NCBI GenBank assembly: GCA_964558665.1
Contig: CAZLFA010000011.1
Span: 4,617-68,616, forward strand
Reading direction: 5' to 3'
Length of the DNA stretch: 64,000 bases
DNA from: an uncultured Syntrophaceae bacterium
GTDB lineage: Bacteria; Desulfobacterota; Syntrophia; Syntrophales; PHBD01
Part shown: positions 6,485-60,094 of the stretch, piece by piece
How the letters are laid out: each line of letters begins with the position of its first letter
Numbering within the stretch: position 1 is the first letter of the stretch
The notes under the pieces: generated by a model
Told to the model about the DNA's origin: nothing
Seen by the model: only the letters and a program-made list of their open reading frames with translations
Database searches by the model: none
Translations under genes and position numbers: made by a program

Positions 6485-6593
6485 GCCGGTCAAAGAGGTT
6501 TTCAAGCGGCGAATCAAATATTTTTCCTGTGAAAAATATTCTGAGCAGCGGAAAACCTCTTTGACCGGCATACCAAAGGGTATTACTTTTTTT
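6485..6593 (+). repeat. Palindromic intergenic repeat, copy 1 (+ orientation)
   Basis: GCCGGTCAAAGAGGTTTTCAAGCGGCGAATCAAATATTTTTCCTGTGAAAAATATTCTGAGCAGCGGAAAACCTCTTTGACCGGC followed by ..GGGTATTACTTTTTTT. It lies between convergent gene ends. Confidence 0.9.
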
Positions 6594-6609
6594 ATCTCGT
6601 AATATGGGA

Positions 6610-7665
6610 TTATCTCTGCGCTGAAATCGGACCGTTGATCTGTTTTATTGTCTTGAAGAGGACTTCCGCTACGCACTTGTTTCCTTCCGGGGTGAGGTGA
6701 TCATCCAGTATATAGAAGTTGTCACTTGTCAGATACTCCGACATGTCCAGAACAATCATTCTTTTTATGTATGGGGGATAATCTGCGCCGGCAATCCTTT
6801 TTTTCAGTGTCGAAGTGAAGGCGTTCATCTGATTCTTGCCGTTCATTTCAAAGGCGATGATTTGCACTTCAGCCAGGTCCAGGCCGCTCTTGACAATGGC
6901 GTGAAGAAACAATTCCGCCTCGTCTTTGTCAACCCGTATCGCTGTCACGTCCCTTTTCTCTTCTTTTTTTTCCTGTCTCTCTTTCGCCTCATGAATTTTC
7001 TTATCCAGCTTCAGCTTCAGATACTTGCCGAAGTAGTACGGCCTGTCGGCGCTGTGAATGGCTACGTATTTCTCGAACGTCTCACGGCGCATGGTTTTAA
7101 GGCTGTTGCCGTTAAGGTAAAAATCCCTGTTCTCTTCATAGTCATCATTGCAATACTGGATAATCAGGAATTTCATATGTTCTCTGTTCACGCGTCCCAG
7201 CATCTTCATCTCTCTCACCGTGCCGTACGACGGCACGGCGGTATTGAGGACATTCGTGCCGAGCATTCGTTTCAGCACACTGGAAAACATCTCATCCTGC
7301 TCCACTCCCCAACCCAGAGCGAAGGAATCGCCGACCACGACAATTTCCGGATGTGCAAGGGATGATTCCTCATCGCGTACGCCAAGGGAGTTGACAAGGT
7401 ACCGGTTGCTGAACTCTCTACCCGCAAAAATAAACTCTCCCGGGTTGAGGATATATCCCAAATCGGTATCAAAACGTCCGCATCCCTTCAGAAACTGCAT
7501 GATCCGCCTTTCACCGCTGAAGACATAGAGATGCCCCATACTGTTGATTATGCTTTGCGGGCACATGCGCAGAAGTGCCGGGTTCCGGACCAGAACAAGC
7601 ATGTACATTTCAAGAAGCACAAGCGCTCCCAGCACTGATCCAATTATGACAAAAAGAGACAGCAT
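6610..7665 (-). CDS. Membrane-anchored SGNH/AlgJ-like esterase or O-acyltransferase family protein
   Basis: N-terminal TM helix, GDS block (VVVGDSFALGWGV), and a DDHLTPEG motif that resembles the D-x-H-W/L-T..G motif of AlgJ/AlgX-type SGNH-like proteins. Confidence 0.55.
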   Translation of the reverse strand: MLSLFVIIGSVLGALVLLEMYMLVLVRNPALLRMCPQSIINSMGHLYVFSGERRIMQFLKGCGRFDTDLGYILNPGEFIFAGREFSNRYLVNSLGVRDEESSLAHPEIVVVGDSFALGWGVEQDEMFSSVLKRMLGTNVLNTAVPSYGTVREMKMLGRVNREHMKFLIIQYCNDDYEENRDFYLNGNSLKTMRRETFEKYVAIHSADRPYYFGKYLKLKLDKKIHEAKERQEKKEEKRDVTAIRVDKDEAELFLHAIVKSGLDLAEVQIIAFEMNGKNQMNAFTSTLKKRIAGADYPPYIKRMIVLDMSEYLTSDNFYILDDHLTPEGNKCVAEVLFKTIKQINGPISAQR

Positions 7666-7780
7666 ATCATGTGATCCTTATTTGAACAGATTTCAAACAA
7701 TCCAGAAATTTTCCGGCAACATACATTTTTTCAAATAAATGGGAAAGTAAAAGATGTTAAGAACTCTTCATAAACTGCAA

Positions 7781-7859
7781 CGGGGCTTTCCAGCGGCGAA
7801 TCAAAAATTTCTCCCGTAAAACGAGACGGGAAAAATATTCTGATCCGTAGAAAGCCCCG
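7781..7859 (+). repeat. Palindromic intergenic repeat, copy 2 (+ orientation)
   Basis: CGGGGCTTTCCAGCGGCGAATCAAAAATTTCTCCCGTAAAACGAGACGGGAAAAATATTCTGATCCGTAGAAAGCCCCG. The outer stem differs from copy 1 but is still self-complementary. Confidence 0.85.
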
Positions 7860-7902
7860 TGCGCACGACCACAGTTTTTATAAAATCTTCCGATCCGTTT
7901 AC

Positions 7903-9519
7903 CTATCTCCTGTTGCTTGTTTCGGCCGCAAAATCTAGAAAGCCGCCCTGTTCCCTGTCTTCGTCAGTATATCTCTTCACAGCCGGAGACCGCAGAGTTC
8001 TGACACTTTTTGCCTGCACGCCGTATGCCTTCCTGGCCTGCGGCACTACGCCATTCCCGCCTTCCATGATAATGTTCAGCTCCGCGACAATATGATTCAC
8101 CTCTTCCGCCAGTGCGGCCAGCTCCTCAGAGGCAGCGGCTGTTTCCTCCGAATTTGCCGCGTTCTGCTGGACGACCTTATCCAATTCCACAGTCGTTGAA
8201 CTTATCTGGCTTACCCGCATGCTCAGCTCTTTGCTGGCATTGGTTATGTCAAGCATCTTGTCGCCCATGACGGTTGCCGATTCCACGATCTCTTCAAAAT
8301 TGTCATTTATTCCCTTTATACCCTGTGATGTCTGAATGACGCGCTTTATATTGCTGTCCAGCTTATCACGGGTGTTCTTCGCAGCATCCGCGGCACGGAT
8401 GGCCAGATTCCTGACTTCTTCAGCCACGACGGCAAACCCGACCCCGGCATCACCCGCTCTGGCGGCCTCCACAGCCGCGTTCAGGGCAAGCAGATTAGTT
8501 TGAAAGGCAATCTCGTCAATCGTCTTGATGATCTTCAGCATTTCACTGGCATCGTCTTCGATCTGCCGCATACCCTGCGTCATCTCCACCAGCGACTTGA
8601 GCGACTGCCCTGATTTTTCGATGTTCTGCTTCATAAGATGGTCGGCGCCTGCCGTCAGTTTAGCAACATCCGTACTCATGTTCGCCATTTCTGACAGAGA
8701 CTCGGACGTATTCTCCAGTCCCGCCGCCTGTTCGCTCGCCCCTTCCGCCAGATGCTGGCTTGCCTCGGAAACTTGAGAAGATGCAGTTATCAACTGACTT
8801 GCCGCCTGCTTGAGCCGATTGCTTATGATATTCAGTTTGCCGGACATATAACGTGCAGCCAGATAACAGAACACTATCGCCAAGAGCAGGATGCTCAACT
8901 GAATACCCAGAATGACCATGCTGTTTTGTTTGCCGACGGCTTGCAGATTATGAGCCGTTGCCAGGATTTCATCCTCATAGGAACCGGCGCCAATGATCCA
9001 GTCAAGCGGCTTATAGTGAACCAACCGGGCAAGCTTCATCCTCGCCTCTTTGTCACCCTGATTCTTCCACGGATACCTCAATTCTCCTACAGTGCCCGGC
9101 TTAAGCGTCGTCGCTTTCCTGATAATCTCCTGGACGAAGAAATTGCCGTCAGAATCCTTTGCCTGCCAGATGTTTTCACCATCACGCTTCCCTTCCATGG
9201 AAACGATGTAGTTGCCCTTTGAATCAAGAACGTACACATACCCTGTCGTCCCTATCTTGATTGTCTTCATATAGTCCTTCAGATTCTTCTCCGCCGCGGC
9301 GTCTCCCCCTGCCGGCAGCATGAGGCACATTGCATAGAGGTTCTGGACCGTATGGTCAAGATCGATTCTGGCGGCTTTGACGCTCTCATCCGTTACGGTC
9401 TTCATCATCTGATTGTTCTGGTAAAATACAATGACGGAAATAATCAGCAGCGGGATTGCTGTAAGTAAAATTCCTCCGACAACAAGCTTAACCTTAAACG
9501 ACTGTTGCAGCATCGACAT
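7903..9519 (-). CDS. Methyl-accepting chemotaxis protein with a periplasmic Cache-like sensor
   Basis: Two TM segments flank a ~170 aa periplasmic region. Highly conserved MCP signalling hairpin ([40 protein letters not shown]). GGAGG lies 8 nt upstream of the ATG. Confidence 0.9.
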   Translation of the reverse strand: MSMLQQSFKVKLVVGGILLTAIPLLIISVIVFYQNNQMMKTVTDESVKAARIDLDHTVQNLYAMCLMLPAGGDAAAEKNLKDYMKTIKIGTTGYVYVLDSKGNYIVSMEGKRDGENIWQAKDSDGNFFVQEIIRKATTLKPGTVGELRYPWKNQGDKEARMKLARLVHYKPLDWIIGAGSYEDEILATAHNLQAVGKQNSMVILGIQLSILLLAIVFCYLAARYMSGKLNIISNRLKQAASQLITASSQVSEASQHLAEGASEQAAGLENTSESLSEMANMSTDVAKLTAGADHLMKQNIEKSGQSLKSLVEMTQGMRQIEDDASEMLKIIKTIDEIAFQTNLLALNAAVEAARAGDAGVGFAVVAEEVRNLAIRAADAAKNTRDKLDSNIKRVIQTSQGIKGINDNFEEIVESATVMGDKMLDITNASKELSMRVSQISSTTVELDKVVQQNAANSEETAAASEELAALAEEVNHIVAELNIIMEGGNGVVPQARKAYGVQAKSVRTLRSPAVKRYTDEDREQGGFLDFAAETSNRR

Positions 9520-9700
9520 GATAATATCCTCCTTTTCCTGAGCTTACGTATTTTGATTTACTGATATATTGTCGTGTCTTCCCGTTTCAGAGAAAACCTG
9601 TCTTCAATCTGAAGATTCCATCCCGGCGGTCTTTCAACTGTGTCACTGCACGGGATGCAGCTTTGCATCTTTATCCGCGGACAAGTATTCTGCGGCCTGA

Positions 9701-10003
9701 TCACTTGCCGGAGATGGTGAATATTGTTTCCAGCTTCAGTTCATGAAAAAGCTGCAGAATATCATTTTGCACATTCACCAGCAGGACCCTCCCTCCCTGC
9801 ATGGCAATGTTCTTGTAGAAAAGGAGGAGCTTTCCTATTCCCGAACTGCCGATGTAGGATACATCAGACATGTCTATGGTCACTTCCTTGAGAGCAGCCA
9901 GTTCTCGAAGTTTTGCCTTCAACGCCTCGGCCCCCTTTTCATCAACGTCACCCCTGATTTCAACTCTCCCGCTATTTTCATTCCGGCTTACTGTGATTTC
10001 CAT
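9701..10003 (-). CDS. STAS domain protein (anti-sigma factor antagonist, SpoIIAA/RsbV-like)
   Basis: 100 aa with the typical STAS phosphorylatable-Ser region DMSDVSYIGSSGIGKLL. It lies 33 nt downstream of the PP2C/kinase fusion gene. Confidence 0.8.
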   Translation of the reverse strand: MEITVSRNENSGRVEIRGDVDEKGAEALKAKLRELAALKEVTIDMSDVSYIGSSGIGKLLLFYKNIAMQGGRVLLVNVQNDILQLFHELKLETIFTISGK

Positions 10004-10036
10004 ATGGCATCTCCTTTGCTTATTTATTGTTTCCGG

Positions 10037-13000
10037 TCATGATTGCTTTTCCCGTCTCCAGATATTGAACGTTGAAGCCGGCTTCCTTGTATTAAAACCA
10101 TCCGCATGCCTTGAAAAATAGGCGATCAGGTGTCTTCCGCCGCTAAGCCATTCCACCTCTTCCGTCAGCAGCCGGATAAGGAAGTTGCCGCGGCCGTCCG
10201 AATTCAAAATATTCTGCATATCCGTCGGATCATAGCTCCTCTCTGAATCGAATCCGTCCCCTTCATCTATAACTTCGAGAACAGCGTCATTACCGTAACG
10301 TCTGCGGACGCTTATTTTTTTCAGCGGGTTCTGTTTGTTTCCATGGCGCCATGCGTTAGCCAGGGCCTCTTCCAACACCATCCTCAATCTCGTCTCCGGT
10401 GAGGCAAATCCCCTGTCCAGCCATTCTTTCCGCATTTTTTCCAAAAGCCCGTTAAGACAACCGGTGAATTCGTCGACATCACCGGGGCACACAACATCCT
10501 CAATGCTGTCCGTGCTGTCTTCCAGCTCCAGCCCCAGCAGAGTGATGTCGTCCCTGCCGTCCCGGGAAGCGGCTGAGGTATCCGGACCGCTGCCCTTGGC
10601 TGCGCTGAAGAGCATTTTCATGATTATCGATACGGGAAGGCGGGGGTCGGTCTTTACTATGGATGATGCTATAGCGACTATGTCATCCGTGCGCAGAACC
10701 GGTTTTCCATAACTGCGGGGAAGATCGGCAAGACCGTCCGTATAGAATATAAGTTTATCGCCTGTCTCGAGAGCAATTTCACCGGCGTCAAAAGCGATCT
10801 CCTTGCAGAATCCGATCGGAAGATTTCCGCCGTCCCCTTCGACGCCCGGCAGAGAGATAACTTCCCGGCCACGAATCAGCAGGAAAGGAGGATGACCTGC
10901 CGATGTAAAGCGCATTTTCATGTCTTGATGATGAATTTCAGCATTGATGGCCGTAAAGAAGTTATCCTCTCCGAAAAAGCTCAGGTTGCATATTTCCTCG
11001 TTCAAGCGGGTGACGACATGCTCAACCGCCGTGTCGGTCTTGTTTACCAGCAGGGCATTATGAATGAGGTCGGTTACAATGCTTCGCAGGATGCAGCTTA
11101 CTTCATGCCCCGATTGATCTTTCAGGCTGACTACCGATTTTTGCATTCCCGGGTACCATTTGGTAAAATTCTTGACGAAAAAATGGTCCCCGCCCTCCGC
11201 ATAACAGGGCACATACTCGGAAGTGACAAACAGATCCACGCCGCCGGCAAGTCTGGTGTGCCGGTAAGGCCGCGGATTGATCATGGCAAGGATGTTTTTA
11301 GCCAGGTCGATATTGACATCCTGCTTCTGCAGAAGATCCTTGAGATAGCTGTTCGCCGTCATCAGTTCACTTGTGCGTTCGGCAACCCGGGTTTCCAGTT
11401 CGGCATGAGCTTTTTGCAGCGACTGCTGCGCCTTCTTGTGCTCGGTTATATCCGCAAGCGAGGCGACACTTTTCGTTGTCCCGGGAATCATGTCGATATT
11501 TATATAGATATCCCTGACCACGCCGTTGATGTCTTTAAGCCTGAATTCATACTGCTTCAATGCTGATTCCGGACGGGAACGGCGTTTCCGGTGCATTCCC
11601 AGCATCTCCTCAAGGTTCTCGGGAACGACAAACTCCGTCCATTTCTTTTTTCCCTCTATCTCCTCTTTCGAATAACCGGTAAGCCTTGTAAACTCGTTAT
11701 TCACCAGAGAAATTGTTGTGTCCTTTTCTATTATCAGCATGGCGGAGCCGGTGTTTTCAAATACAGTGCGGTACTTCGTTTCCGAATCCCGCAGTTCCCT
11801 GTTTTTCTGCGCCCGCACAATTTCAATGGCGGCAAGATTACCGAAAAGCTGTATGGTATCCAGATCATTTTGTGAAAACTCGGTCAGCCTGCGGTTAGCT
11901 ACATGGAGATAACCCAGAACAAGCTCCCCGGCCTTGACCGGCACAGCCATTATCGAGACTATTCCCTCATCGATGACTGTTTCATCAACTAAACGCCTTA
12001 TTTCCCTGTTCCTGACATCTTTACCGGCAGAATCCTCCCCGGCGGAATTTCCACGTTTCCCGACTATGGGCAGGTGCAGATGCTTGAATGCATCCGACTC
12101 GATGCCGAAGAAAGAATGCATGCATAAGTGCTTATGCGTTTCATCCGCGTAGACGATAAAGGCGACATCCGCGCCCACGATGGTTCGGCTTTTTTCCACG
12201 ATGAAGGCCAGATTGTCTTCAAGGCTCTTCTCCGCCGACATATGGAGAGCCAGGTCATAAAGCACGTTGAATTTTCCCAGTTCGTTCTTGAGCCTGAACT
12301 CGATGTCCTTAATATGCGTAATGTCACGAATGCTTTCAATTGCCCCTATTATTTCCCCCTGTGAATCGTAAAAGGGTTTGGCTATGCCCCAGAGATACAC
12401 CTGCTTCCCTTTCAGGGAGACCACATGGGATTCGGCGACCAGCGCATCTCCCCTCTGGACAACATCCAGATATCTGTTGTCCTCCCGCTTTGAGGGATCA
12501 ACGGCTAAGTCGATAAGGATCGGCTGCCTTACGCCGTAAAAGGGAAGGGAGTATTCATAATCACCCCTGCCCAGGATATGCTGCATATCGACACCGGTAA
12601 GTTCCTCCATGGCGCGGTTCCAGACAATGACGCGGTTCTGCCTGTCGATAACAAAGGTGGGATCGGGAAGAAAATTAATAACCTCGGCAAGAATATACTC
12701 CGACCGCTGCTTTGCCTCTTCTGCCCGGACCCGTTCGTTTATTTCGGATTTAAGATCCTCGTACGCCTGAGAGAGCTCCCCTGTACGTTCCTGAACACGC
12801 TGTTCCAGTTGCACGTTCATATTCGCGACGGCATCTTCAGCGATTTTTCGTTCCGTAATGTCATGCAGAATGCCGACGACGTGCGTGATCTTTCCCGCCT
12901 CATTTCTGACAACTCTGGCGTTATCCTCCATGAAGCAGGTTTTTCCGTCAGCGGTCAGCATTTTTATTGTAATGGGTATTTCATCGCCAAAGGCAATGCG

Positions 13001-13318: not shown

Positions 13319-13373
13319 CTGATATGTACCTCACCGGTATTTTGCCGCGGCTGACAATCTCTGTTCACGCTTT

Positions 13374-14528: not shown

Positions 14529-14540
14529 CTGCCGGCTCCG

Positions 14541-26980: not shown

Positions 26981-27054
26981 CAGGGGTTAACGGTTCTCTC
27001 TGTCGCGTCACACATGGCTTAGCGTAAAAACGAAGAGCTTTGCACAACTTGCAT

Positions 27055-27183
27055 AAAGGGTTTTCAACAGGCGAATCAAATATTTTTTCCGGAAGGCACG
27101 ATTGGTAATGTATAATCGCCAATACGCTGTATAGATGCTGCTGCAACAGAAAAAAATATTCTGAACCCCGGAAAAACCTCTGT
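27055..27183 (+). repeat. Palindromic intergenic repeat, copy 3 (+ orientation, with ~55 nt internal insert)
   Basis: ..GGGTTTTCAACAGGCGAATCAAATATTTTTTCCGGAAGGCACG...[insert]...CAGAAAAAAATATTCTGAACCCCGGAAAAACCTCT. Confidence 0.75.
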
Positions 27184-27327
27184 ATGAAAAATTATCTTCT
27201 GTGCAAAGCTTTCGATATATATTGAGAAAATAATAGCTATTTTAACTCATATGCCAAAAAATATCAACGGAACTTTTCCCTTATTTATCATCATCTTATT
27301 TAACACATACTGCACACCCGGAGTTTG

Positions 27328-29065: not shown

Positions 29066-29569
29066 ATGCCATGGTATGCAATACACACAAAAAGCCGGCA
29101 CGAGGACAAGGTATATCTGGGATTTGTCCAGAAGAACATATCCGCCTTCCTGCCGAAGATCGAAGTCTGGAGCAAGAGAAAAGACCGGAAAAAGAAGATT
29201 CAGCTCCCCATGTTCCCCGGATATCTCTTTGTGGAAGCCCACACCATGCACAATGAAACGAAACTTGACATACTGAAGACCTATGGCGTTGTCAGGATTC
29301 TGGGTAAACCGAAGGGTCATGAACCAATCCCCGTCCCGGATGAGAAAATCGATGCCATCCGGCGTCTTGTCCAGTCAAAAGTCGAAATTCAGCATTTTCA
29401 GTATCCGAAGGTCGGGGAACCGGCCAGGATTGTCGACGGCCCTTTCATGGGGATAGAAGGAACCGTTACAGCTACCGATTTTGAGAAGGAACTGTTTGTC
29501 ATAACGATCGATATACTGCAGCGCGCTGTGGCGATTAGGTTAGAGGGCTTCCAGATCTCAAAACTCTAA
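29066..29569 (+). CDS. NusG-family transcription antitermination paralog (RfaH/UpxY-like)
   Basis: NGN domain start MPWYAIHTKSRHEDKV...FPGYLFVEA and a KOW-like GEPARIVDGPFMGIEGTV. The track start is 29057; ATG 29066 gives the family-typical N-terminus. Confidence 0.8.
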   Translation: MPWYAIHTKSRHEDKVYLGFVQKNISAFLPKIEVWSKRKDRKKKIQLPMFPGYLFVEAHTMHNETKLDILKTYGVVRILGKPKGHEPIPVPDEKIDAIRRLVQSKVEIQHFQYPKVGEPARIVDGPFMGIEGTVTATDFEKELFVITIDILQRAVAIRLEGFQISKL

Positions 29570-29796
29570 CGGCTTCGGGAAAAGTCCATATGCTGCGTTG
29601 TGCTTCGTCCCTCGTCACTGCGGCGTACCCTCAGGTACGCCTCATTCCTCGGTACTTGCACGCCTTGCCTCTGGAGCTTTTTGCGAAGCCTTCCGGTCTT
29701 GAACGTTATCCTGTTATCTGACGTTACATAAACTCTAGCGGCTTCGGAAAATAAAGGAAAAAATATTCTGAGCCGCGGGAAACCCTTTGCGCCGGC
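29561..29796 (+). repeat. Composite repeat: duplicated left arm (29561..29583 and 29730..29751) flanking a second palindromic element, followed by the family right arm
   Basis: AAACTCTAACGGCTTCGGGAAAA / AAACTCTAGCGGCTTCGGAAAA lie 169 bp apart. The inner element has GGCTTCGGGAAAAGTCC...GGAGCTTTTTGCGAAGCC arms and a GGCGTACCCTCAGGTACGCC core (29622..29641). The right arm is GGAAAAAATATTCTGAGCCGCGGGAAACCC. Confidence 0.75.
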
Positions 29797-29820
29797 AACT
29801 ATCTTTTTCCGAAGAAACGA

Positions 29821-37267: not shown

Positions 37268-37306
37268 GCAATGCCTCATAAGTATAAATAAGTTTTTTAA
37301 CACAAA

Positions 37307-37345
37307 AGCCCTCTGCAAGTTCATCCTGCAGAGGGCTTTATATTT
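37307..37345 (+). terminator. Rho-independent terminator downstream of groEL
   Basis: 11-bp stem AGCCCTCTGCA / TGCAGAGGGCT (37307..37317 and 37327..37337) followed by TTTATATTT. Confidence 0.75.
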
Positions 37346-37370
37346 CAAGTCCAATGTTTAACATAACTCA

Positions 37371-37481
37371 CTTAAAGAGTTGTTCCGCGGCTCAGAATAT
37401 TTTTCTTCCGAAGCAGTTGCAGATTTTACGAGTCGTGCCCGGCAGAAAAAAATTTGGTTCGCCGCTTGAAAACTATTTAAG
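37371..37481 (-). repeat. Palindromic intergenic repeat, copy 5 (- orientation, ~40 nt internal insert)
   Basis: CTTAAAGAGTTGTTCCGCGGCTCAGAATATTTTTCTTCCGAAGC...GGCAGAAAAAAATTTGGTTCGCCGCTTGAAAACTATTTAAG. Confidence 0.8.
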
Positions 37482-37508
37482 CATGCTTTTATCTTTTGTG
37501 CAGAGCTT

Positions 37509-41126: not shown

Positions 41127-41160
41127 GAGACAGTCTCCTTTTTATCCCGGATTACGCGAT

Positions 41161-41269
41161 AAAAAAAGTAATACTCTTATGTTTCCCGGTCAAAGAAACT
41201 TTCCGCGGCTCAGAATATTTTTCACAAGAAAAATATTTGATTCGCCGCTTGAAAAACTCTTTGACCAGG
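41161..41269 (-). repeat. Palindromic intergenic repeat, copy 6 (- orientation)
   Basis: AAAAAAAGTAATAC...CCGGTCAAAGAAACTTTCCGCGGCTCAGAATATTTTTCACAAGAAAAATATTTGATTCGCCGCTTGAAAAACTCTTTGACCAGG. This is the reverse complement of the copy 1 and copy 7 architecture, including the GTATTACTTTTTTT flank. Confidence 0.9.
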
Positions 41270-41311
41270 TTAATGTTCGCTTACCTAAGTGCCTATATGT
41301 TAACTTCGGGT

Positions 41312-42394
41312 TTATGCCTTTCCTTCAAGCATCCCGGCCGCAGCGTTATAAACGTCATTCACGTCAATGAGATCCATACACCTGAAGTCAGTGGGGCACG
41401 TCACCTTGAGGCACGGACTGCAGGACACATCTTTGCGGATGACCAGAGAATGGTCTCCCACCGGCGAAGTAGTCAGCGGATTCGTCGAACCGAAAATGGC
41501 AACCGTGGGTATATTCAACGCTCCGGCAATGTGCATCAATCCGGAGTCGTTCGATATGTAAAGCGAACACTGCGATATAAGCGCAATGGCCTCTTTGAGA
41601 TTGGTCCTGCCGGCCAGATCCGTCATGGAATGCCCCGCATTTTTGATTACATTGCCCGTGGATTCCCTGTCAGCCTCACTTCCAAAAAGGATAACACGGG
41701 AATCGGGAAAGTCATTCATAAGACGGTCGGCTACAGCAGCAAATCTCTCCGGATACCACTTCTTCGCGGGACCGTATGTGGCTCCCGGAGCAATTCCTAT
41801 CAGTGTGGCCCCTCTTCTTATTCCGCATGACTCAAGAATTCTTTCTGCCGTGAGGCCGTATGAGGTCGGTACACTGAGGCCGGTTTTTCTTTCCGCAGGT
41901 CCCTTCAACCCCAGACTCTTCAGCATTTCCAGATAGTATTCCACCTGGTGGATCTTTCTTACGGCCTGTGTCCGTCGCACGGAATGGGTGAGCAGAGGGC
42001 CCCGCGCATCCGAGTTGTATCCCGCCCGGATGGGAATAGACGCCAGCCTGGCTATGATCGCCGCTTCTATAGCGTTCTGCAGCAGGATTGCGGCATCGAA
42101 CCTTTTCTTTTTCAGCTCTCCGGACAGCCTCAATATCCCGGCTGTCCCGGTGTGCCGTCCGGGATCGTCAAAGATGATGACCTCATCGACAAACGGAGAT
42201 ATGTTGAAAAGTTCAGCCACCCAGGGCTTCACGAGAATAGATATACGGGCATGAGGATAGGATTCGCGTATTGCAGCAACTGCCGGCATCGTCATAACCG
42301 CATCGCCGATCCAGTTGGTGCCCCTTACAAGGATATTGCCGATCTTATCAACCGGCAACCGCTTATTTCCCCGTACCTTCAGAGAATAGTCCAT
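41312..42394 (-). CDS. Glycosyltransferase family 9 (LPS heptosyltransferase, WaaF-like)
   Basis: ILVRGTNWIGDAVMTMPAVAAIRESYPHARISILVKPW and ..SNDSGLMHIAGALNIPTVAIFGSTNP. Confidence 0.75.
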   Translation of the reverse strand: MDYSLKVRGNKRLPVDKIGNILVRGTNWIGDAVMTMPAVAAIRESYPHARISILVKPWVAELFNISPFVDEVIIFDDPGRHTGTAGILRLSGELKKKRFDAAILLQNAIEAAIIARLASIPIRAGYNSDARGPLLTHSVRRTQAVRKIHQVEYYLEMLKSLGLKGPAERKTGLSVPTSYGLTAERILESCGIRRGATLIGIAPGATYGPAKKWYPERFAAVADRLMNDFPDSRVILFGSEADRESTGNVIKNAGHSMTDLAGRTNLKEAIALISQCSLYISNDSGLMHIAGALNIPTVAIFGSTNPLTTSPVGDHSLVIRKDVSCSPCLKVTCPTDFRCMDLIDVNDVYNAAAGMLEGKA

Positions 42395-48952: not shown

Positions 48953-49220
48953 GAGATGACCTCCCTCTGAGTACTGGATTTGATGAGTGGGTAAGTATAG
49001 AGAAGCAGCTCTCTTATGTCAATCAAAACCGGCCTGACATGCAGGGAATATAGGTGCCGACATTATTGGCTGTCGCACCGACCGGCAATTAATCAGTTGC
49101 CGGATGGAACTTTGTAAGGTCTGCGCAAAGGGTTTGCAAAGGTGAGAACGCAAGGAACAGGCATGCCTGTTCCCTACAAATAATTTCATCATGATGCCGA
49201 TGTGGCGAGCGCTCTGATTC

Positions 49221-49242: not shown

Positions 49243-49252
49243 GGATGGAAGC

Positions 49253-54002: not shown

Positions 54003-54055
54003 ATCTCGACATGATGACATCTGTAAACTCATGACGTAAAAATATACTGTCTTTA

Positions 54056-54184
54056 AATCGGAAAGGAGATATTTTTCGTTCTGGCAAGGAGATCAAGGCG
54101 TTGCGCGGAGGCGTACATCGGTTCGTACGTCGCACAAGCAATGCCGCTGATCGACACAGTCAGAGCGGAAAAGAGCCCTTTCCG
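54056..54184 (+). repeat. Degenerate member of the palindromic repeat family carrying the GGCGTAC-core insert
   Basis: CGGAAAGGAGATATTTTTCG ... CAAGGCGTTGCGCGGAGGCGTACATCGGTTCGTACGTCGCACAAGC ... CAGAGCGGAAAAGAGCCCTTTCCG. The core resembles the reverse complement of the 29.6 kb inner element. Confidence 0.55.
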
Positions 54185-54188
54185 TTGT

Positions 54189-54836
54189 CTATGACGGATT
54201 GCCGATCGCCTCAAACGACGCCAGATATCGTGAGATTATTTCGGTGACTTCACTGGTTAATTCATTGAACTGAATGCCGACGTACACTTTTTTTTCATCG
54301 TTCTTTATGTGCTTGGGAATACCCAATATCTCAAGTTCTTTTTCAACTCCGGGCATAAAGAACTTCACCACAATATCTCCGCTTACGGAATTGAACCCTG
54401 ATGGAACCCTGGAGGCGGACATGGAAAATTTGCATCCCTGATCATTCATGTCCAGAAGGAGTCCCGGATATGTTTTTCCTTCGAAAACGGCCTTCAGGGG
54501 AAGATTGCATTCAATCCTTTTCTTCGCACGAAGTTCATGATGAAATATTTCCGAAGGATACTGGATAAAAATCAGCTTGGTCGGGTTTGACACGGACTCT
54601 ATCAAACTGGACTTGAAGCCGATGATTGTGCCTTTCATAATAAATCGAACGACGACTCTGTTGCCGATGAAAAGGTTGGTGCGGGCGGAAAAGAGATGGC
54701 TGGAAACGGGGGTCTTCAGAATAAGAAACTCGTCCGGCAGAATTCCCACGACGAAGCTGTTGAATTTCTGATCGGCAGTATCAACTTCGATCTGCACGGG
54801 TGTTCCTATCGGCAACATGGACAGTTTTTCAGTCAT
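54189..54836 (-). CDS. PilZ domain protein (YcgR-like two-domain c-di-GMP receptor candidate)
   Basis: RxxxR motif (RAKKR) followed by DMNDQGCKF (a D-x-S-x-x-G variant) in the C-terminal half, with an N-terminal YcgR-N/PilZ-like beta region. Confidence 0.7.
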   Translation of the reverse strand: MTEKLSMLPIGTPVQIEVDTADQKFNSFVVGILPDEFLILKTPVSSHLFSARTNLFIGNRVVVRFIMKGTIIGFKSSLIESVSNPTKLIFIQYPSEIFHHELRAKKRIECNLPLKAVFEGKTYPGLLLDMNDQGCKFSMSASRVPSGFNSVSGDIVVKFFMPGVEKELEILGIPKHIKNDEKKVYVGIQFNELTSEVTEIISRYLASFEAIGNPS

Positions 54837-54877
54837 AATCTTTACCTGATCAGAACCGGCAGAAAACCCTTCCGCAA

Positions 54878-55177
54878 CTAATTGATGTACGCCGGCTTCC
54901 CCTTAACAGTAACGCCACCTTTGTTTAGTTCCTTGATTATCTTACCCAGAGATGTCTTCTCATCATCAAAAGCAATGGAGACCGTGTCCTGTTTGGGGGT
55001 CTCGAACTTTATCACGCCGTTTATCTTTTTCAGGATAGCCCCTATCCTTGCCCTTCCTCCTCAGGTGCTGCATCCCGGAACAGTCAACTGGACGGCCTTT
55101 TCGGCGGCTTGCGCAGTTCCGGGGATTATCCAGACAGCAATGCAGACAAACAATAAAAGTAAAGATATTCGTTTCAA
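54878..55177 (-). CDS. Secreted MerP/CopZ-like heavy-metal-associated (HMA) domain protein with in-frame TGA (candidate selenocysteine) in the metal-binding motif
   Basis: My own translation from TTG 55177 (GGAGGA 9 nt upstream): MKRISLLLLFVCIAVWIIPGTAQAAEKAVQLTVPGCST[TGA 55063..55061]GGRARIGAILKKINGVIKFETPKQDTVSIAFDDEKTSLGKIIKELNKGGVTVKGKPAYIN, ending at TAG 54880..54878. The frame is the same on both sides of the TGA. Not in the ORF track. Confidence 0.7.
55032..55048 (-). promoter_or_regulatory. SECIS-like stem-loop 12 nt downstream of the in-frame UGA
   Basis: mRNA: UGA-GGAGGAAGGGCA-AGGAUAG-GGG-CUAUCCU. This is a 7-bp perfect stem with a G-rich apical loop, and the loop lies ~19 nt from the UGA. 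Confidence 0.5.
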
Positions 55178-55392
55178 AGATTTACATCCTCCCGGACGAC
55201 ATTAATTGTTAATTCATATCACTTACAACCATCCTGTTTCAACAAAAGAATCCGAAAAAATACACAATATATTATCAAAAAAATTCACCAAATCGGCAAT
55301 TTGCCTGCATTCACAGAAAAAAAAGTGGATTATTTGCATGAATTGTACTAGGCATAACGATAATTTATAAAGGAGCAGAAACTTAAGCAATT

Positions 55393-56697
55393 ATGAGATT
55401 CGACATCTGTAAAGGCGGCAGTGGTTTAACCTACGAAATACGAAACATCGTCAATGTGGCCAACAAACTTCAGGAGTATGGCATAGAAGTTCATTGGGAA
55501 AACATTGGTGATCCCGTACAGAAGGGAGAGCAGATTCCCAAGTGGATGAAGGACGTCCTTACCGAGATCATGTGCGACAACATGTCCTATGCATACTCTC
55601 CCACAAAAGGAGTCAACGAAACCAGAGAGTTCCTTGCGGAAAAGGTAAACAAAAGGGGGCATGTCCAGATCACCCCCGAAGATATAATCTTTTTCAACGG
55701 CCTTGGCGATGCCATTGCCCGCTGCTACAGCGCGATCCAGATCGACGCCCGGATCATTCTTCCCGAACCTACGTATTCAACGCACTTTCTGGCTGAAGTT
55801 CTGCATGCATCGTTTCCTCCGAACACCTACCGGATGGATCCGTACAGCAAGTGGTATCCCAATATGCGCGAGCTTGAGCATAAAGTGAAAAGCCATCAGG
55901 CCATTGTCGGCATTCTTGTAATCAACCCGGACAATCCCACGGGATTCGTCTATCCGGCCGATACGTTACGCCAGATTGTTAAAATCGCCAAAGAGTACGA
56001 CCTTTTTCTGATTTTCGACGAAACTTATCACAGCATTATTTATAATGGAAAGAAGACGGCCCCTCTTTCCGATGTGGTTGAGGATGTTCCCGCCATCAGC
56101 ATGAAGGGAATATCCAAGGAATTCCCGTGGCCGGGTTCCCGCTGCGGCTGGATAGAAATATACAACGCCGACAAGGACGAGTCGTTCCGCCGCTACATCA
56201 ATACCATCCTGAACCAGAAGATGTCGGAGGTATGCTCCACGACGCTGCCGCAGATTTCCATCCCCAAAATCATGCAGCATCCCGAATACAGCAACTATCT
56301 GAATGAACGCAAAAGCCACTATGAAAAACTGTCCAATATAGCCTTCAATATTCTCAAGGACGTCCCCTGGCTTACCGTCAACAGAACAAACGGCGCCTTT
56401 TACATGACCGCCGTCTTCAACGAATCGGTACTTAACAAACGCCAGACGCTTCCCATAGAGCAGACGGATATAAGAGATTATATAGAAAAACTGACCACAG
56501 GCAATATCGATTTCGACAAGCGGTTTGTCTATTATCTGCTGGGAGCTACGGGCATCTGCGTTGTACCTCTGTCCTCCTTCTCCACAGCACTACCCGGTTT
56601 CCGCATGACTTTGCTGGAGAAGGACCCCGACAAATTCGAGAGCCTGATAAGGATAATCGCGGAAAAAATCGTTCAATACATAGAATCGTCCAAGTAG
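55393..56697 (+). CDS. Class I/II PLP-dependent aminotransferase (alanine/aspartate aminotransferase-like)
   Basis: PLP-lysine region SMKGISKEFPWPGSRCGW (the S-x-S/G-K...G-x-R-x-G-W pattern), NPDNPTG and a length of 434 aa. Confidence 0.8.
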   Translation: MRFDICKGGSGLTYEIRNIVNVANKLQEYGIEVHWENIGDPVQKGEQIPKWMKDVLTEIMCDNMSYAYSPTKGVNETREFLAEKVNKRGHVQITPEDIIFFNGLGDAIARCYSAIQIDARIILPEPTYSTHFLAEVLHASFPPNTYRMDPYSKWYPNMRELEHKVKSHQAIVGILVINPDNPTGFVYPADTLRQIVKIAKEYDLFLIFDETYHSIIYNGKKTAPLSDVVEDVPAISMKGISKEFPWPGSRCGWIEIYNADKDESFRRYINTILNQKMSEVCSTTLPQISIPKIMQHPEYSNYLNERKSHYEKLSNIAFNILKDVPWLTVNRTNGAFYMTAVFNESVLNKRQTLPIEQTDIRDYIEKLTTGNIDFDKRFVYYLLGATGICVVPLSSFSTALPGFRMTLLEKDPDKFESLIRIIAEKIVQYIESSK

Positions 56698-56803
56698 CGG
56701 CAGCAAAACCAAATCCGCATCTGCGGGAAAAAGATATTGTACCTGCACGGGAACCGGCATCAATTTCCGTGCAGGCTGTTACTCTACTATCGGAGACGGC
56801 CTT

Positions 56804-57760
56804 TTGCCTCATTCAAATTTTATCTGCAGATTTTTTTTGTTCATCGTATTATCGATATTTATCTTTCCCAAACTCGTTATCGCCGCAGAGCCCCCATTCT
56901 CCCGTTTTTTCCTGATGGGAAGCGGCAGCATGCATATCATCAACAGCCATGACCGGCGTGAACTCAATGTGAATATTCTCCATGCCGACGGTTCATTCAA
57001 TGAAGATGCATTGAAGAAAGTGGATGCCCTCTTTAAATTCCCCACAGAGGAGAAGGGCGAACATATTTCTCTGCGGATGCTGTTCATGCTCTCCTACTTC
57101 TCAGACAAGCTGGCCCCCGGGAAAATCATCTATATGTACTCAGGATACAGAAGCCCCGAATACAACGAAAAACTGAAACAGGCAGGCGGATACGTGGCGC
57201 GGACAAGCACACATATCGACGGCATGGCTGTAGATTTTTCGTTCGACGGCCTGGACTGCAAACCGGTATGGGAATCCATTCGCAGCATGAACTGCTGCGG
57301 AATAGGGCATTACCCGGGGGAGATGCTGCATCTGGATGCGGCCCGGCCGCGTTACTGGGAGGCTACAAAGCCGAAAGGAAAACCGAAAAGGCCGGAACAC
57401 AACCGCAGCATCTACATATCATCAGAATATGACCGGTATATTCCCGGAGAGAGAATCCGGTTGTCCTTCTCATCGGTGAGCGATTTCGGCTTCGGTGTGG
57501 GAAAGAAAGTGTCGCTTGTAAAAGATCGCCAGGGCAAACAGCCGTTTAGAAAAATATCCCTTGAATCTGAAGATAAAAAGTCATGCCTGCTGATCAACGA
57601 TAGAAAAGAGTCGCGCTTTATTTATGTGCTGCTGCCGGAAAAAATAAAGACGGGAAGATACAGGATTAAAATCGACTTCTGCAAAAAGCCGTTTCCGGCA
57701 ATGCCCGCCCGGGTTGTGTCCAACGAATTTGAGATCGTTGCCGGAAAGACGGGCGGCTGA
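56804..57760 (+). CDS. Secreted peptidase M15A/DUF882 (YcbK/MepK-like) protein with an extra C-terminal domain
   Basis: SGYRSPEYNEKL...STHIDGMAVDF..GHYPGEMLHLD match the DUF882 metal-binding motifs. N-terminal hydrophobic signal. The start codon is uncertain (TTG 56804). Confidence 0.7.
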   Translation: MPHSNFICRFFLFIVLSIFIFPKLVIAAEPPFSRFFLMGSGSMHIINSHDRRELNVNILHADGSFNEDALKKVDALFKFPTEEKGEHISLRMLFMLSYFSDKLAPGKIIYMYSGYRSPEYNEKLKQAGGYVARTSTHIDGMAVDFSFDGLDCKPVWESIRSMNCCGIGHYPGEMLHLDAARPRYWEATKPKGKPKRPEHNRSIYISSEYDRYIPGERIRLSFSSVSDFGFGVGKKVSLVKDRQGKQPFRKISLESEDKKSCLLINDRKESRFIYVLLPEKIKTGRYRIKIDFCKKPFPAMPARVVSNEFEIVAGKTGG

Positions 57761-57785
57761 AACAGATCATGGAGGACAGATTGAT

Positions 57786-58583
57786 ATGAAAGTCGGGTTC
57801 GTGCAGATTGATTCCGCCTTTGGCGAAACAGATCGGAACATTGAAATAGTCGCACATTTGCTCAAATCATTTCAGGGAGACCTGGTTGTCCTGCCTGAAT
57901 TCTTTAACACAGGATATCTCTTTACCTCGCAGGAAGAGGCATACAACCTGGCCGAAGAGATTCCCACCGGAAGAACAGTTAAGGCACTGTGCGATCTGGC
58001 GGCTCAGGAAAAGACCTACATCGTGGCGGGTCTTCCCGAAAGGTCGGGCGGCATTCTTTATAATTCGGCAGTGCTGGTGTCACCCCATGGTTACATCGAC
58101 ACATACAGGAAGATGCATCTTTTCAACGAGGAGAAACTATGGTTCTCACCCGGAGACAAGGGATTTGCTGTTTATGACATCGGACACTGCCGCATCGGCA
58201 TCATGATCTGTTTTGACTGGTTCTTTCCGGAATCGATGCGCATCCTGTCCCTCAAGGGCGCTGATGTAATATGCCACCCGGCCAATCTTGTCCTGCCGTT
58301 CTGCCAGGACGCCATGACTACCAGATGTCTTGAAAACCGCGTTTTCGCCATTACCGCCAACCGGACGGGAACAGAGGCAAGAGGCGGCAAGTCGTTCCGT
58401 TATACGGGCAGGAGCCAGATTACCGGTCCCCAAGCCAATGTCATTCACCGGGCGAGCGAAACATCCGATGAGACAGGACTTACGGAGATCGATATCAACG
58501 CCGCCAGAAACAAGAGAATCAATCCCTACAATGATCTGTTCGAGGACAGGAGAACCGAGTTCTATCAGGATATAACAAGATGA
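57786..58583 (+). CDS. Carbon-nitrogen hydrolase (nitrilase superfamily)
   Basis: Catalytic E-K-C pattern: VLPEFFNTGY, YRKMHLF and the Cys region CRIGIMICFDWFFPE. The start is ATG 57786 with GGAGGA upstream; the track ORF starts at 57714. Confidence 0.85.
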   Translation: MKVGFVQIDSAFGETDRNIEIVAHLLKSFQGDLVVLPEFFNTGYLFTSQEEAYNLAEEIPTGRTVKALCDLAAQEKTYIVAGLPERSGGILYNSAVLVSPHGYIDTYRKMHLFNEEKLWFSPGDKGFAVYDIGHCRIGIMICFDWFFPESMRILSLKGADVICHPANLVLPFCQDAMTTRCLENRVFAITANRTGTEARGGKSFRYTGRSQITGPQANVIHRASETSDETGLTEIDINAARNKRINPYNDLFEDRRTEFYQDITR

Positions 58584-58685
58584 AAGTCAGAAAAACTGCA
58601 GCAAACAGAGAAGGATTAAAATCTTATGATTCGTTTTCTCAAAAAGTAATTGTTGTGCATATAACCTCACTTTAATATACAGCCG

Positions 58686-59789
58686 CTATCGAAATTTTTC
58701 CAATATAAAATCGGAGGCTTTGTCACTGCGCATCAATATGCACAAAACCATTCCTTCCCGATATTCTGGAGAATGGAGAAGGTGAACAGATATCTCAATC
58801 AGCTTACCTGTCCGGGCGTTTTTATACAGGAAGTAAACATATGATGTCTTGCTTTCTCCGAGCAATACCCATTTTCCCAATACCGCTTCGACTTCCTTGA
58901 ATTGCAAATACTGGCTGTTATAGTCGTTATTTGGATGAACAGTTACCCTGAAGGAGGGAGGGCAGGTTACTGAATCAATCACTTGTCGGGTCTTGTCATT
59001 TGATATCCTTATTTCATATCCGGGGATATTCAACCTGATCAACCTGAAGTTATTCTTTGCATTCGTCTCTTCAGTGGCCTTTATTCCAAAATGTTTTTCT
59101 ATCGCTTCAAGGGTCGGTGTTTCACCGGAGACAATTTCTGCAATAGGTATTAATATGGATGATATGGGAAATGGTTTTTCCGGTTGTTTATCACGCCTCC
59201 CCTCAAAAAAATCTATATCAAATTTGGTTACACCTCTCCAAATCGCTATTGACAAAACCCTGGCTTCCGGGTCGCTTGGAGGAGTGCTAAGGTGCACAGA
59301 GATACCGACCATTTCCTTAGTCTGTGGGTTCTTATGCAGAAAGAAAGCACGGTCTTCATTGCCATCCTTATCTATACCCGGCACAAATTTCCCCAACACT
59401 GCCGAAACTTCCTTGAATTTTAAATAGCGGTTATTTTGGGGAACGATTTCAACTACGTCCAGAATGTTTTTATATGTCTGAGATAATATTTTATATTCAG
59501 GAACCTTCAATCTGAAATACTTCATGGCTTTATATTTTTTTTCCTTAACAGCTTTAGTTCCAAGATGTTTTTCTATTGCTTCAACAGTTGGCGCTTCACC
59601 GGAGATAATTTCTATAATGGGTAGTATTATTGAAGATACAGAACCCACATCTTTGGTTTGCTCCTTATTTGTCCCGGCATTCTCCCCATCTGTTGATGCC
59701 TCACCGCATGAAAGCGAGAAGACCTGCAGCGAACAGAGAAGGATAAAAAAAACTACGATTAGGTTTCCTGAACAGCAATTCCGGTGCAT
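58686..59789 (-). CDS. Secreted/lipoprotein-like protein of unknown function built from two tandem ~150-aa repeats
   Basis: N-terminal hydrophobic signal with Cys residues (LLCSLQVFSLSCGE). Internal duplication: SSIILPIIEIISGEAPTVEAIEKHLGTKA / SSILIPIAEIVSGETPTLEAIEKHFGIKA; YLKFKEVSAVLGKFV / YLQFKEVEAVLGKWV; ISVHLSTPPSDPEARVLSIAIWR / ISVHLLHSPEYREGMVLCILMR. Confidence 0.6.
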   Translation of the reverse strand: MHRNCCSGNLIVVFFILLCSLQVFSLSCGEASTDGENAGTNKEQTKDVGSVSSIILPIIEIISGEAPTVEAIEKHLGTKAVKEKKYKAMKYFRLKVPEYKILSQTYKNILDVVEIVPQNNRYLKFKEVSAVLGKFVPGIDKDGNEDRAFFLHKNPQTKEMVGISVHLSTPPSDPEARVLSIAIWRGVTKFDIDFFEGRRDKQPEKPFPISSILIPIAEIVSGETPTLEAIEKHFGIKATEETNAKNNFRLIRLNIPGYEIRISNDKTRQVIDSVTCPPSFRVTVHPNNDYNSQYLQFKEVEAVLGKWVLLGESKTSYVYFLYKNARTGKLIEISVHLLHSPEYREGMVLCILMRSDKASDFILEKFR

Positions 59790-59987
59790 ATATTTCTCCT
59801 GTCAATTCCCGGTAACGAGGTTATCTCTAGTGCCCCTCGCCATATATAACAATCCTCTTTTCAAGCGGAAAAAAATGAAATTCAAAAGGGGGTCTCCCCT
59901 GTCCACTTCTCATATCAAGCAGTCTGTGGCTATAAGAATGAATCACTACGGTATTGCCTTTTTTAAGATAAACAAAGAATATTAAAT

Positions 59988-60094
59988 CTGCCGAAGAGGC
60001 TTTCACGCGGCGAATCAAATCTTTTTCTTGTGAAAAATATTCTGAGCCGCGGAAAGCCTCTTTGACCGGGGCACTAAAAGGTATTACTTCTTTA
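59988..60094 (+). repeat. Palindromic intergenic repeat, copy 7 (+ orientation)
   Basis: CTGCCGAAGAGGCTTTCACGCGGCGAATCAAATCTTTTTCTTGTGAAAAATATTCTGAGCCGCGGAAAGCCTCTTTGACCGG followed by ..AAAGGTATTACTTCTTTA. Confidence 0.9.

Follow-up and report, generated by a model that had tools for sequence, protein, structure and literature searches.

The window, that is, the whole 64,000-nucleotide stretch of DNA analyzed here, which comes from an uncultured bacterium, carries a family of short palindromic repeats dispersed singly between housekeeping and signaling genes. A profile built from the copies themselves and then run over these 64 kb detects exactly seven of them (c1 to c7). With at most three mismatches, the 27-mer of the left arm has six matches in the window and the 24-mer of the right arm has seven, whereas shuffled sequence has none. 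The preliminary description had counted at least eight copies. Seven lie where it placed them, with zero expected by chance, but the eighth is a member of F2, a distinct though related palindromic family that has motifs in common with the long-loop subfamily. The copies and the features associated with them are the following.

6438 to 6608, + strand: c1, type A with a 4-nt loop (profile match 6477-6634)
7781 to 7859, + strand: c2, 79-nt variant with a loop of about 16 nt (profile match 7777-7882)
27036 to 27210, + strand: c3, long-loop form with a 60-nt loop (profile match 27046-27200)
29737 to 29797, + strand: c4, right-half remnant (profile match 29713-29811, right half only)
37371 to 37481, - strand: c5, long-loop form with a 37-nt loop (profile match 37357-37502)
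41141 to 41145, - strand: right copy of the c6 target-site duplication ATAAA (the relative has a single AAAAA here)
41146 to 41310, - strand: c6, complete type A element (profile match 41131-41286)
41311 to 41315, - strand: left copy of the c6 target-site duplication ATAAA, from the comparison with the relative locus L134
49096 to 49142, + strand: type B (long-loop) fragment, beyond the seven profile copies
54056 to 54184, no strand assigned: whole-length hairpin of the F2 family, not detected by the family profile
59950 to 60108, + strand: c7, type A (profile match 59975-60125)

All seven profile-detected copies are intergenic in a window of which 88% is coding (P of about 3e-7 for seven random points), and each has a stop codon 1 to 117 nt away. 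This bears out the earlier remark that the repeats sit between genes, near their 3' ends. Both orientations relative to local transcription are seen. The first copy makes up nearly all of the 176-nt spacer bounded by the convergent stop codons at 6433 and 6610; its hairpin spans 6483-6571, its right terminal repeat spans 6595-6608, and its left end is irregular. Copy c7 retains its hairpin, and its right end, CTCAATCCGGG, stops at 60108; its left end is replaced by right-subterminal-like sequence in direct orientation. The remaining copies are more varied: c2 has a distinct outer stem (CGGGGCTTTC/GAAAGCCCCG) and no recognizable terminal repeat, c3 has an extra outer inverted repeat (AGCTTTGCACA/TGTGCAAAGCT), and c5, with the outer stem CTTAAATAG/CTCTTTAAG, is bounded by the stop codon of a histidine-kinase gene and, at about 37300-37345, by a GC-rich hairpin with a T-run that is separate from the element. 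Two pieces are partial. Copy c4 is made up of the inner arm and outer stem of the right side, as in the long-loop type, and in the fragment at 49096-49142 the left flank and left outer stem are followed by the first part of the left inner arm (GGAACTTTGTAAGGTCTGCGCAAAGGGTTTGCAAAGG). Motifs at the ends of the F2 hairpin recur in the type B flanks and loop, and the hairpin is not a copy of the core. The copies have no coding capacity. Neither a transposase nor any other Pfam domain was found in or beside those of the window, and the window as a whole contains no transposase.

The copies are united by an asymmetric hairpin. Its arms pair as GCGGC/GCCGC, TCA/TGA, and AATATTTTTC/GAAAAATATT, and they leave a GAA bulge on one side and an unpaired C on the other, as first described. 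Only these inner arms, together with the conserved bulges, are common to all subfamilies. Folded as DNA, the hairpins do far better than shuffled sequences (z of -10.3, -6.2, -2.3, -3.1, and -6.5). In complete copies of the short-loop form, type A, the hairpin takes up about 85 nt of a 165- to 185-nt element, in which a 14-bp terminal inverted repeat, about 31 nt of unique sequence, the long imperfect hairpin, about 25 nt of unique sequence, and a second 14-bp terminal repeat follow each other. The terminal inverted repeats read CCCGGATTACGCAA...TTGCGTAATCCGGG. With at most two mismatches, the CCCGGATTACGCAA repeats are found at both ends of the copies at loci L097, L107, L110, L115, L122, and L147, and in the window copies at the right end; c6 has an intact right repeat (GCGTAATCCGGG) and a partly deleted left one (CCCGAAGTTAAC). 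The flank that had been noted as common to copies 1, 6, and 7 is real but not external, since GGTATTACTT..TTT belongs to the element and continues to the terminal repeat. Perfect 5-bp direct duplications surround four of the six complete copies (TTCAA at L107, TTTAT at L115 and at L147, and ATAAA at c6), and imperfect ones surround the other two (four of five positions matching at L110 and three of five at L122). The flanks of all six are AT-rich, the targets being TTTAT/ATAAA and TTCAA. Terminal repeats and duplications are demonstrated for type A only; in type B, c2, c3, and c5 there is no sign of them beyond a hint in the second copy of L099.

The comparison with relatives revealed a precise empty site. 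At L134, the genes for a heptosyltransferase and a HAD-phosphatase overlap by 4 bp where the window has the 165-nt element c6 and the duplicated ATAAA. The left ATAAA introduces a premature TAA stop, and the heptosyltransferase therefore has 360 aa in the window and 367 aa in the relative. Other copies also differ in their presence: c3 is missing from the orthologous spacer of L124/L126, c5 is missing from L139, and L138 carries a further copy, about 205 nt long, without a counterpart in the window. Orthologous copies of c1 are retained at L103 and L138, c2 has one at L138 (8 of 79 core positions differ, the right arm being more degenerate in the window and nearer the family consensus at L138), and the half copy c4 is also present at L143. 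Since c1, c2, and c4 are common to relatives, the activity of the family spans the divergence of these lineages. Besides the seven copies in 64 kb, 17 further copies were found on metagenome contigs, and short-read contigs break off inside c1 and c6. The asymmetric core is also found on backbones other than type A, namely type B (long loop, other outer stems and flanks), c2, c3, and c5, and within one metagenome copy (L118) another palindromic element is nested. The family is thus a mosaic.

We conclude that these repeats are very probably mosaic, non-autonomous MITEs, small non-coding DNA transposons that are moved in trans. Prokaryotic MITEs are defined as elements of less than 500 bp with terminal repeats of 4 to 30 bp and, in young copies, direct repeats; AT-rich intergenic targets, stable stem-loops, and nesting are also described for them (PMC10969869). 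The elements studied here are shorter than about 500 bp, mobile, and dispersed in multiple copies, with terminal inverted repeats and target duplications in type A. The preliminary description had proposed a REP- or MITE-like element, a structured RNA, or a terminator module, and among these options the terminal repeats, the 5-bp duplications, the empty site, and the presence/absence differences favor the MITE-like one. The irregular left ends of c1 and c7 and the partly deleted left repeat of c6 are points against it. The family was previously undescribed, and it is an ordinary kind of element except for its unusually well conserved asymmetric core. We suggest that a transposase whose gene lies elsewhere in the genome moves the elements in trans, and that this would be a DDE enzyme cutting with a 5-bp stagger. 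Copies would persist only in AT-rich spacers beside stop codons, because insertions within genes would be lost.

The outer stems vary between copies but remain complementary, a pattern that had been taken for structural covariation. Across 23 copies, 90% of the outer-stem cells are paired, against 42 to 53% when the partner is slid, and both sides have changed in 59 cells, against 23.5 +/- 3.8 in shuffles. The covariation is therefore real, but it mostly separates subfamilies. On the + strand of the element, G-T and A-C mismatches occur in 57 and 25 cells, yet in just 23 and 14 pairs. Covariation of this kind is poor evidence for an RNA, because it lies mostly between subfamilies and because DNA palindromes gain complementary changes by templated mutation and conversion; such DNA-level mechanisms can suffice to produce it. 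In a MITE family, complementary outer stems could arise from palindrome formation, from templated mutation or conversion, or from selection on source copies, and they need not mean an RNA function.

The distribution of conservation along the element is the reverse of what is expected from a simple MITE. Pairwise identity is 96% in the core and about 81% in the termini, and among the copies of the window, whose choice did not depend on sequence, 2 to 5 of 53 core positions differ, against 14 to 19 of 68 elsewhere (p of 0.002 to 0.02). This raises the question of whether the inner hairpin GCGGCGAATCAAATATTTTTC/GAAAAATATTCTGAGCCGC is an independent module, set on at least two unrelated MITE backbones and kept either by selection, as a protein-binding site or as an RNA hairpin with an effect on the adjacent genes, or by palindrome-centered conversion. 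We hold this to be unlikely, though not negligibly so. Conversion centered on the palindrome would homogenize the middle of the element and yield compensatory changes. If the module were independent, the covariation and the gradient of conservation toward the center would reflect real constraint, beyond shared ancestry.

A little less probable, in our judgment, is that the core hairpin is itself the functional unit, a protein-binding site or a hairpin of 3' UTR or inter-cistronic RNA that is selected at each locus and carried by several MITE backbones. The sharing of the bulged inner arms by all subfamilies, the far better conservation of the core than of the remaining element in the window copies, and the proximity of each copy to a gene 3' end could all be explained in this way. 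So could the changes between c1 and its ortholog at L103: 8 of 89 hairpin positions differ, and they include two compensatory pairs (G-C to C-G and G-C to A-T), of which about 0.1 are calculated to be expected if changes were random. Furthermore, the left arm holds AATCAAATATTTT, close to the IHF core consensus WATCAANNNNTTR, and may be a candidate site for this protein. However, the ATCAA of this putative site is altered in type B (ATTAA) and in c5 (ACCAA), the copies point both with and against transcription, and the core of c2 has diverged from its ortholog, as mentioned above, its right arm being the more degenerate in the window. Inter-copy conversion, or breakage and repair of the hairpin, could also homogenize the center.

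It is very unlikely that the repeats are REP/BIME-like or IS200/IS605-derived hairpin elements (PATEs) moved by a HUH (Y1) transposase, e.g., RAYT, through recognition of the bulged hairpin. They do recall BIMEs in being intergenic, imperfect palindromes that conserved bulges make oriented, with covarying outer stems and mosaic combinations of palindromic modules. Yet REPs are 20 to 40 nt long, lack target duplications, and are accompanied by a RAYT gene, and transposition by HUH enzymes makes no target duplication. The elements described here are much longer, with a hairpin of about 85 nt, 14-bp terminal inverted repeats outside it, four perfect 5-bp duplications, and a clean empty site, and a search of Pfam domains found no RAYT or Y1 transposase gene in the window or in the relative loci examined. 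The REP option put forward earlier is thus disfavored.

The least probable explanation would make the repeats first and foremost intrinsic terminators, or members of another structured RNA family, that spread by duplication. Their strong hairpins (z down to -10), their location at gene 3' ends, and one terminator-like call for c2, on the transcribed strand, would suit it, but the whole window gives no Rfam match at gathering score (the only hit, MIR6297 at E 0.1 on both strands of c6, is meaningless), the AT-only inner stem is followed by CTGAGCC or TGATTCG and no U-tract, and the copies occur in both orientations. Moreover, the terminator scan did not call c1 or c6, and within c5 it called just one sub-hairpin, of 7 pairs and on the strand opposite to the element; c5 is upstream of the separate GC-rich hairpin and T-run (read from the sequence, without a call by the scan), and c6 lies within an operon, where it separates two genes whose counterparts in the relative overlap.

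If the repeats are MITEs, which transposase moves them? No cognate enzyme with matching ends was found in the window or in the relative loci examined, and the one transposase seen, of the IS256 family at L108, has different ends. The shape of the ends and the length of the duplication look most like those of IS1380-type elements (ISEcp1), which is only a lead. The ends of this family generally start with CC and its duplications are of 4 to 5 bp. A plasmid search returned almost solely ISEcp1 itself. The ends of ISEcp1 from pCTX-M3, CCTAGATTCTACGT and, as reverse complement, CCTAAATTCCACGT, are like ours in being 14-bp terminal repeats that start with CC, in having 5-bp AT-rich duplications, and in a common CC..GATT..ACG (PMC6061673). 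Still, the ends match weakly (6/14 ungapped, or CC..GATT..ACG with a gap), and ISEcp1 is the sole IS1380 member compared.

The repeats can finally be set against other known systems. They are like integron attC sites in being imperfect palindromes with extrahelical bases that give polarity and with very variable loop length, but attC sites conserve structure only, whereas the sequence here is highly conserved. This identity is disfavored because attC sites bound cassettes in arrays on one strand, usually close to intI, whereas the copies here are single and of either orientation, and no integrase was found in the window. The duplication is of 5 bp, against TA in Correia elements, and the 14-bp repeats begin with CCCGG, against the longer ends of the Tn3 family, which measure about 38 bp and begin with GGGG. 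The Tn3-derived TIMEs are otherwise alike, since they are non-autonomous and mosaic, insert in AT-rich sequence, and make 5- to 6-bp duplications (PMC4133298). The family also resembles Correia/NEMIS in Neisseria, ERIC in enterobacteria, RUP/BOX/SPRITE in pneumococcus, Chunjie in Geobacter uraniireducens, and QMITE2 in Coxiella: all are non-coding elements of less than 200 nt with terminal inverted repeats, short target duplications, and a stable stem-loop, placed at AT-rich intergenic or 3'-UTR sites, with size variants that have internal insertions and with presence/absence differences between strains (PMC10969869). Likewise, the nested copy at L118 resembles the nesting reported for pneumococcal repeats (PMC10969869). 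The repeats have no sequence similarity to any of these MITEs, and the motifs of their core do not occur in the searchable literature. What sets them apart is that the conserved part is a central asymmetric hairpin, found on differing backbones, rather than the termini.

The dispersed repeat reported in the preliminary description is real. At up to three mismatches (≤3), a left-arm 27-mer matches the window six times and a right-arm 24-mer seven times, against none in shuffled sequence, and searching the window with a profile made from the copies yields exactly seven matches (c1 to c7).

Copies of the repeat family in the window, all profile matches
6477-6634, + strand: c1
7777-7882, + strand: c2
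27046-27200, + strand: c3
29713-29811, + strand: c4, right half only
37357-37502, - strand: c5
41131-41286, - strand: c6
59975-60125, + strand: c7

The oriented pairing described at first, with its GAA bulge and unpaired C, is reproduced by a folding program. Compared with shuffles, the hairpins reach z scores of -10.3 (c1), -6.2 (c2), and -6.5 (c7), those of the long-loop copies c3 and c5 being weaker. The proposed location in intergenic regions near gene 3' ends also holds: although the window is 88% coding, all seven copies are intergenic, each with a stop codon 1-117 nt away. Insertions appear to be tolerated, or targeted, at AT-rich stop-codon junctions. Relative to local transcription, c6 is in the sense orientation, c2, c3, and c7 are antisense, and c1, c4, and c5 lie between convergent genes. 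Copy c1 occupies essentially the entire spacer (6434-6609) between two convergent stop codons.

A right-arm scan of metagenomes gave 17 further genuine copies, on short contigs. One contig, L103, is orthologous to 6288-7695 of the window (92.8% identity) and retains c1. A protein query made from the translated repeat (spurious ORFs) returned only 3 proteins, one of which led to a new complete copy, L147. Viral contigs searched for the repeat gave 0 matches, and the degenerate pattern AAAAATATTCTGANCNNNGRAA gave, over the genome collection, 92 single chance matches in unrelated taxa, none of them with a left arm. Aligning all copies on the right arm defines two main forms. Type A (c1, c6, c7, and 11 metagenome copies) has a loop of 4 nt, and its similarity reaches far past the hairpin. 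Complete type A copies consist of CCCGGATTACGCAA, ~31 nt of unique sequence, the hairpin ATCC(C/T)GGTCAAAGRGG-core-CCTCTTTGACC(A/G)GGAT, ~25 nt of unique sequence holding the flank GGTATTACTTTTTT that had been singled out in the preliminary description, and TTGCGTAATCCGGG; the terminal 14-mers are inverted repeats of each other. Type B (c3, c5, the half-copy c4, and six metagenome copies) has a loop of ~37-60 nt, with an outer stem, GTGCGCAAAGGG/CTCTTTGCGCAC, and conserved flanks that are both unlike those of type A. A third outer stem is found in c2. In the type A copy of L113, the left arm mirrors the usual right arm (CCTGGATTACGCAATAAAAAAAGTAATGCCC...), making the element more fully palindromic. 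In c7, the left side looks instead like a direct-orientation version of the right subterminal region. When we sought clean ends for type B, for c3, and for an extra copy in the relative L138, the boundaries were blurred. In L099, TTTAT precedes a second type B copy whose first bases are TCCGGATCACGCAA, and another TTTAT may follow its end; this hints that type B could use the same kind of ends as type A.

The family is mobile. Perfect 5-base direct repeats lie outside the terminal repeats in four of the six complete copies, and every flank of these copies is AT-rich.

Target duplications of the complete copies
L107: TTCAA
L115: TTTAT
L147, a different locus from L115: TTTAT
c6: ATAAA
L110: imperfect, 4/5 match
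L122: imperfect, 3/5 match

For c6, the empty site is seen in the close relative L134, where the genes for the heptosyltransferase and the HAD-phosphatase share a 4-bp overlap (...GGAAAGGCAAAAAAAGGGGAGATTCCTGCATGAGC). The filled site in the window reads GGC[ATAAA]CCCGAAG...165 nt...TAATCCGGG[ATAAA]AAGGAG...ATGAGC. The insertion splits the overlapping gene pair and brings a premature TAA into the heptosyltransferase, which has 360 aa versus 367 aa in L134 (7 residues shorter); the spacer now holding c6 (41127-41311) does not exist in that relative. Copies c3 and c5 are missing in the relatives L124 and L139, respectively, and L138 has an extra copy of ~205 nt with none at that place in the window. 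The extra copy (about 840-1045) lies between c2 and the downstream gene start, orthologous to window position about 7700, where the window has only AACAA; with its blurred ends, no clean duplication is visible. Copies c1 and c2 and the half copy c4 are common to the window and relatives. Since copies are partly shared and partly absent among relatives, insertions occurred both before and after the lineage split. Short-read contigs of the same strain end inside c1 and c6, as expected of a multi-copy repeat.

Terminal repeats, target duplications, and an empty site support the MITE-like half of the "REP/MITE-like" nature first suggested. The REP half is not supported: REP/RAYT and IS200-type elements leave no target duplication, and are disfavored because duplications are present here. 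The window genes concern signaling, LPS, chaperonin, and oxidoreductase functions, with no transposase, integrase, or RAYT among them. A structured RNA, also proposed, found no backing in Rfam: the whole window gave no match at the gathering score, and the c6 region gave only an miRNA match (E 0.1, on both strands), which is meaningless. Nor does the suggested terminator module agree with the element itself, as the inner stem is AT-only with no U-tract after it and neither c1 nor c6 is called in a scan for intrinsic terminators. Copy c5 has the stop codon of a kinase gene on one side and, on the other, a distinct GC-rich hairpin with a T-run, which was read from the sequence and not called by the pattern scan. 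This hairpin, GCCCTCTGCA...TGCAGAGGGC (window about 37300-37345), has T-runs on both strands, stands between groEL and a convergent histidine-kinase gene, is conserved in L139, and is probably a bidirectional terminator. Integron attC sites would be expected in same-strand arrays, in which the window copies are not arranged; the candidate sigma-54 promoter GGCACGA..GTAA, read from the sequence of the long loops, was rejected because it lacks the TTGC -12 element; TTGACC-N17-TACTTT, considered as an outward sigma-70 promoter at the right end of type A, reaches no more than 8/12 and is not called by the scan; and the key ATCAA of a candidate IHF site in the left arm varies across subfamilies.

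The covariation noted in the outer stem raises an additional question: how do the arms stay complementary? With 23 copies aligned, loops trimmed, and a 39-pair structure, 90.3% of cells are paired, versus 42-53% once the partner has been shifted by 1-3 columns, and both sides have changed in 59 cells versus 23.5 +/- 3.8 in shuffles. The pattern is therefore real, but the double changes mostly separate subfamilies and so represent few independent events. G-T exceed A-C mismatches by 57 to 25 cells, but by only 23 to 14 pairs, as a measure of strand asymmetry. Between c1 and its ortholog in L103, 8 of 89 hairpin positions differ, and these include two compensatory pairs (column 3/87, G-C versus C-G; column 16/74, G-C versus A-T), where we calculate that about 0.1 would be expected if the 8 changes were random. 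This suggests that pairing was restored in place. Template-switch mutation in quasi-palindromes and conversion during repair are established processes, and either could restore pairing without an RNA role.

Conservation is strongest in the core, the asymmetric inner part of the hairpin. Over the full set of type A copies, mean pairwise identity is 96% for the left inner arm, a part that played no role in copy selection, compared with 77-85% for the outer stems, 82% for the right unique segment, and 81% for the right terminal repeat. Among c1, c6, and c7, which were not selected by sequence, 2-5 of 53 core positions differ versus 14-19 of 68 elsewhere (p 0.002-0.02), and the orthologs c1 and L103 follow the same trend (2/53 versus 10/68, p 0.065). 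This is odd, because decay of a MITE should affect every part to the same degree, and in an active element the termini should be the best preserved. Perhaps the transposition machinery of every source lineage requires the core, perhaps the core serves the host, or conversion centered on the hairpin may homogenize it. Copy c2 is a counterexample: its core differs from the ortholog at 8 of 79 positions, the window right arm being the more degenerate. Hence, any constraint on the core is not universal.

The preliminary description also listed a degenerate copy at 54056-54184. The family profile does not detect it, and this stretch is instead a whole-length hairpin (z -5.2) of F2, a second palindromic family with ends CGGAAAGG.../...CCTTTCCG and one copy in the window. 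A further F2 copy, in reverse, is nested within a type A left arm on the metagenome contig L118 (about 1165-1345), and type B shares F2 motifs in its loop and right flank. A 152-nt insert adjoining c4 (window 29561-29748), absent in the relative L143, has F2-like motifs and 18-nt direct repeats at both sides, AAACTCTA(A/G)CGGCTTCGG (29561-29578 and 29731-29748). The stop codon of a NusG-like gene lies inside the first repeat and a hairpin, GGCGTACC...GGTACGCC, inside the insert; a duplication of 18 nt is unusual for an insertion sequence. Finally, 49096-49142 is a piece of the type B left end, comprising the left flank, the left outer stem, and the beginning of the left inner arm; an unrelated GGAACAGGCATGCCTGTTCC hairpin comes after it.

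The repeats have practical consequences: they break short-read assemblies of the lineage, create spurious small ORFs, alter gene ends, as c6 does in the heptosyltransferase, and mark strain-level differences. Interest centers mainly on the strongly conserved, oriented core and on the compensatory changes seen between orthologs. This core and the mosaic build make the family a workable case for studying how palindromic repeats keep their arms complementary and whether the host recruits such cores. If the transposase were identified, this abundant non-autonomous family of an uncultured organism would be tied to what drives it.

No cognate transposase was found in the window or in the other loci examined. 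At the locus L108 (about 117-1680), a transposase gene of the IS256 family (Pfam Transposase_mut, E 6e-85) belongs to an element whose end lies directly against the right terminal repeat of a type A copy; this seems to be a place where mobile elements gather. We rejected this transposase as the partner: its element ends are unrelated to those of type A. Duplications made by the IS256 family are 8-9 bp long. Closer in form is ISEcp1, a member of the IS1380 family: like our family, it has 14-bp repeats with CC at the start, and its duplications are likewise 5 bp and AT-rich (PMC6061673). Its ends, read from plasmid pCTX-M3, are CCTAGATTCTACGT and, reverse-complemented, CCTAAATTCCACGT, but their ungapped identity to the family terminal repeat is only 6/14. 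A plasmid search for diverse IS1380 ends returned almost only ISEcp1. This likeness in the shape of the ends makes IS1380-type mobilization a possible lead; we make no claim of membership. Tn3-derived TIMEs also make 5-6-bp duplications in AT-rich DNA (PMC4133298), but their ends differ. In the searchable literature, the family motifs matched nothing but HA-tag primers. Apart from an identified partner, the family shows every feature by which prokaryotic MITEs are defined in the literature (PMC10969869). Of the readings first offered, only the MITE-like one is supported; REP, RNA, and terminator are not. This is one more bacterial MITE family, without sequence relation to the palindromic MITEs of the Correia, ERIC, and RUP type but with the same way of working.
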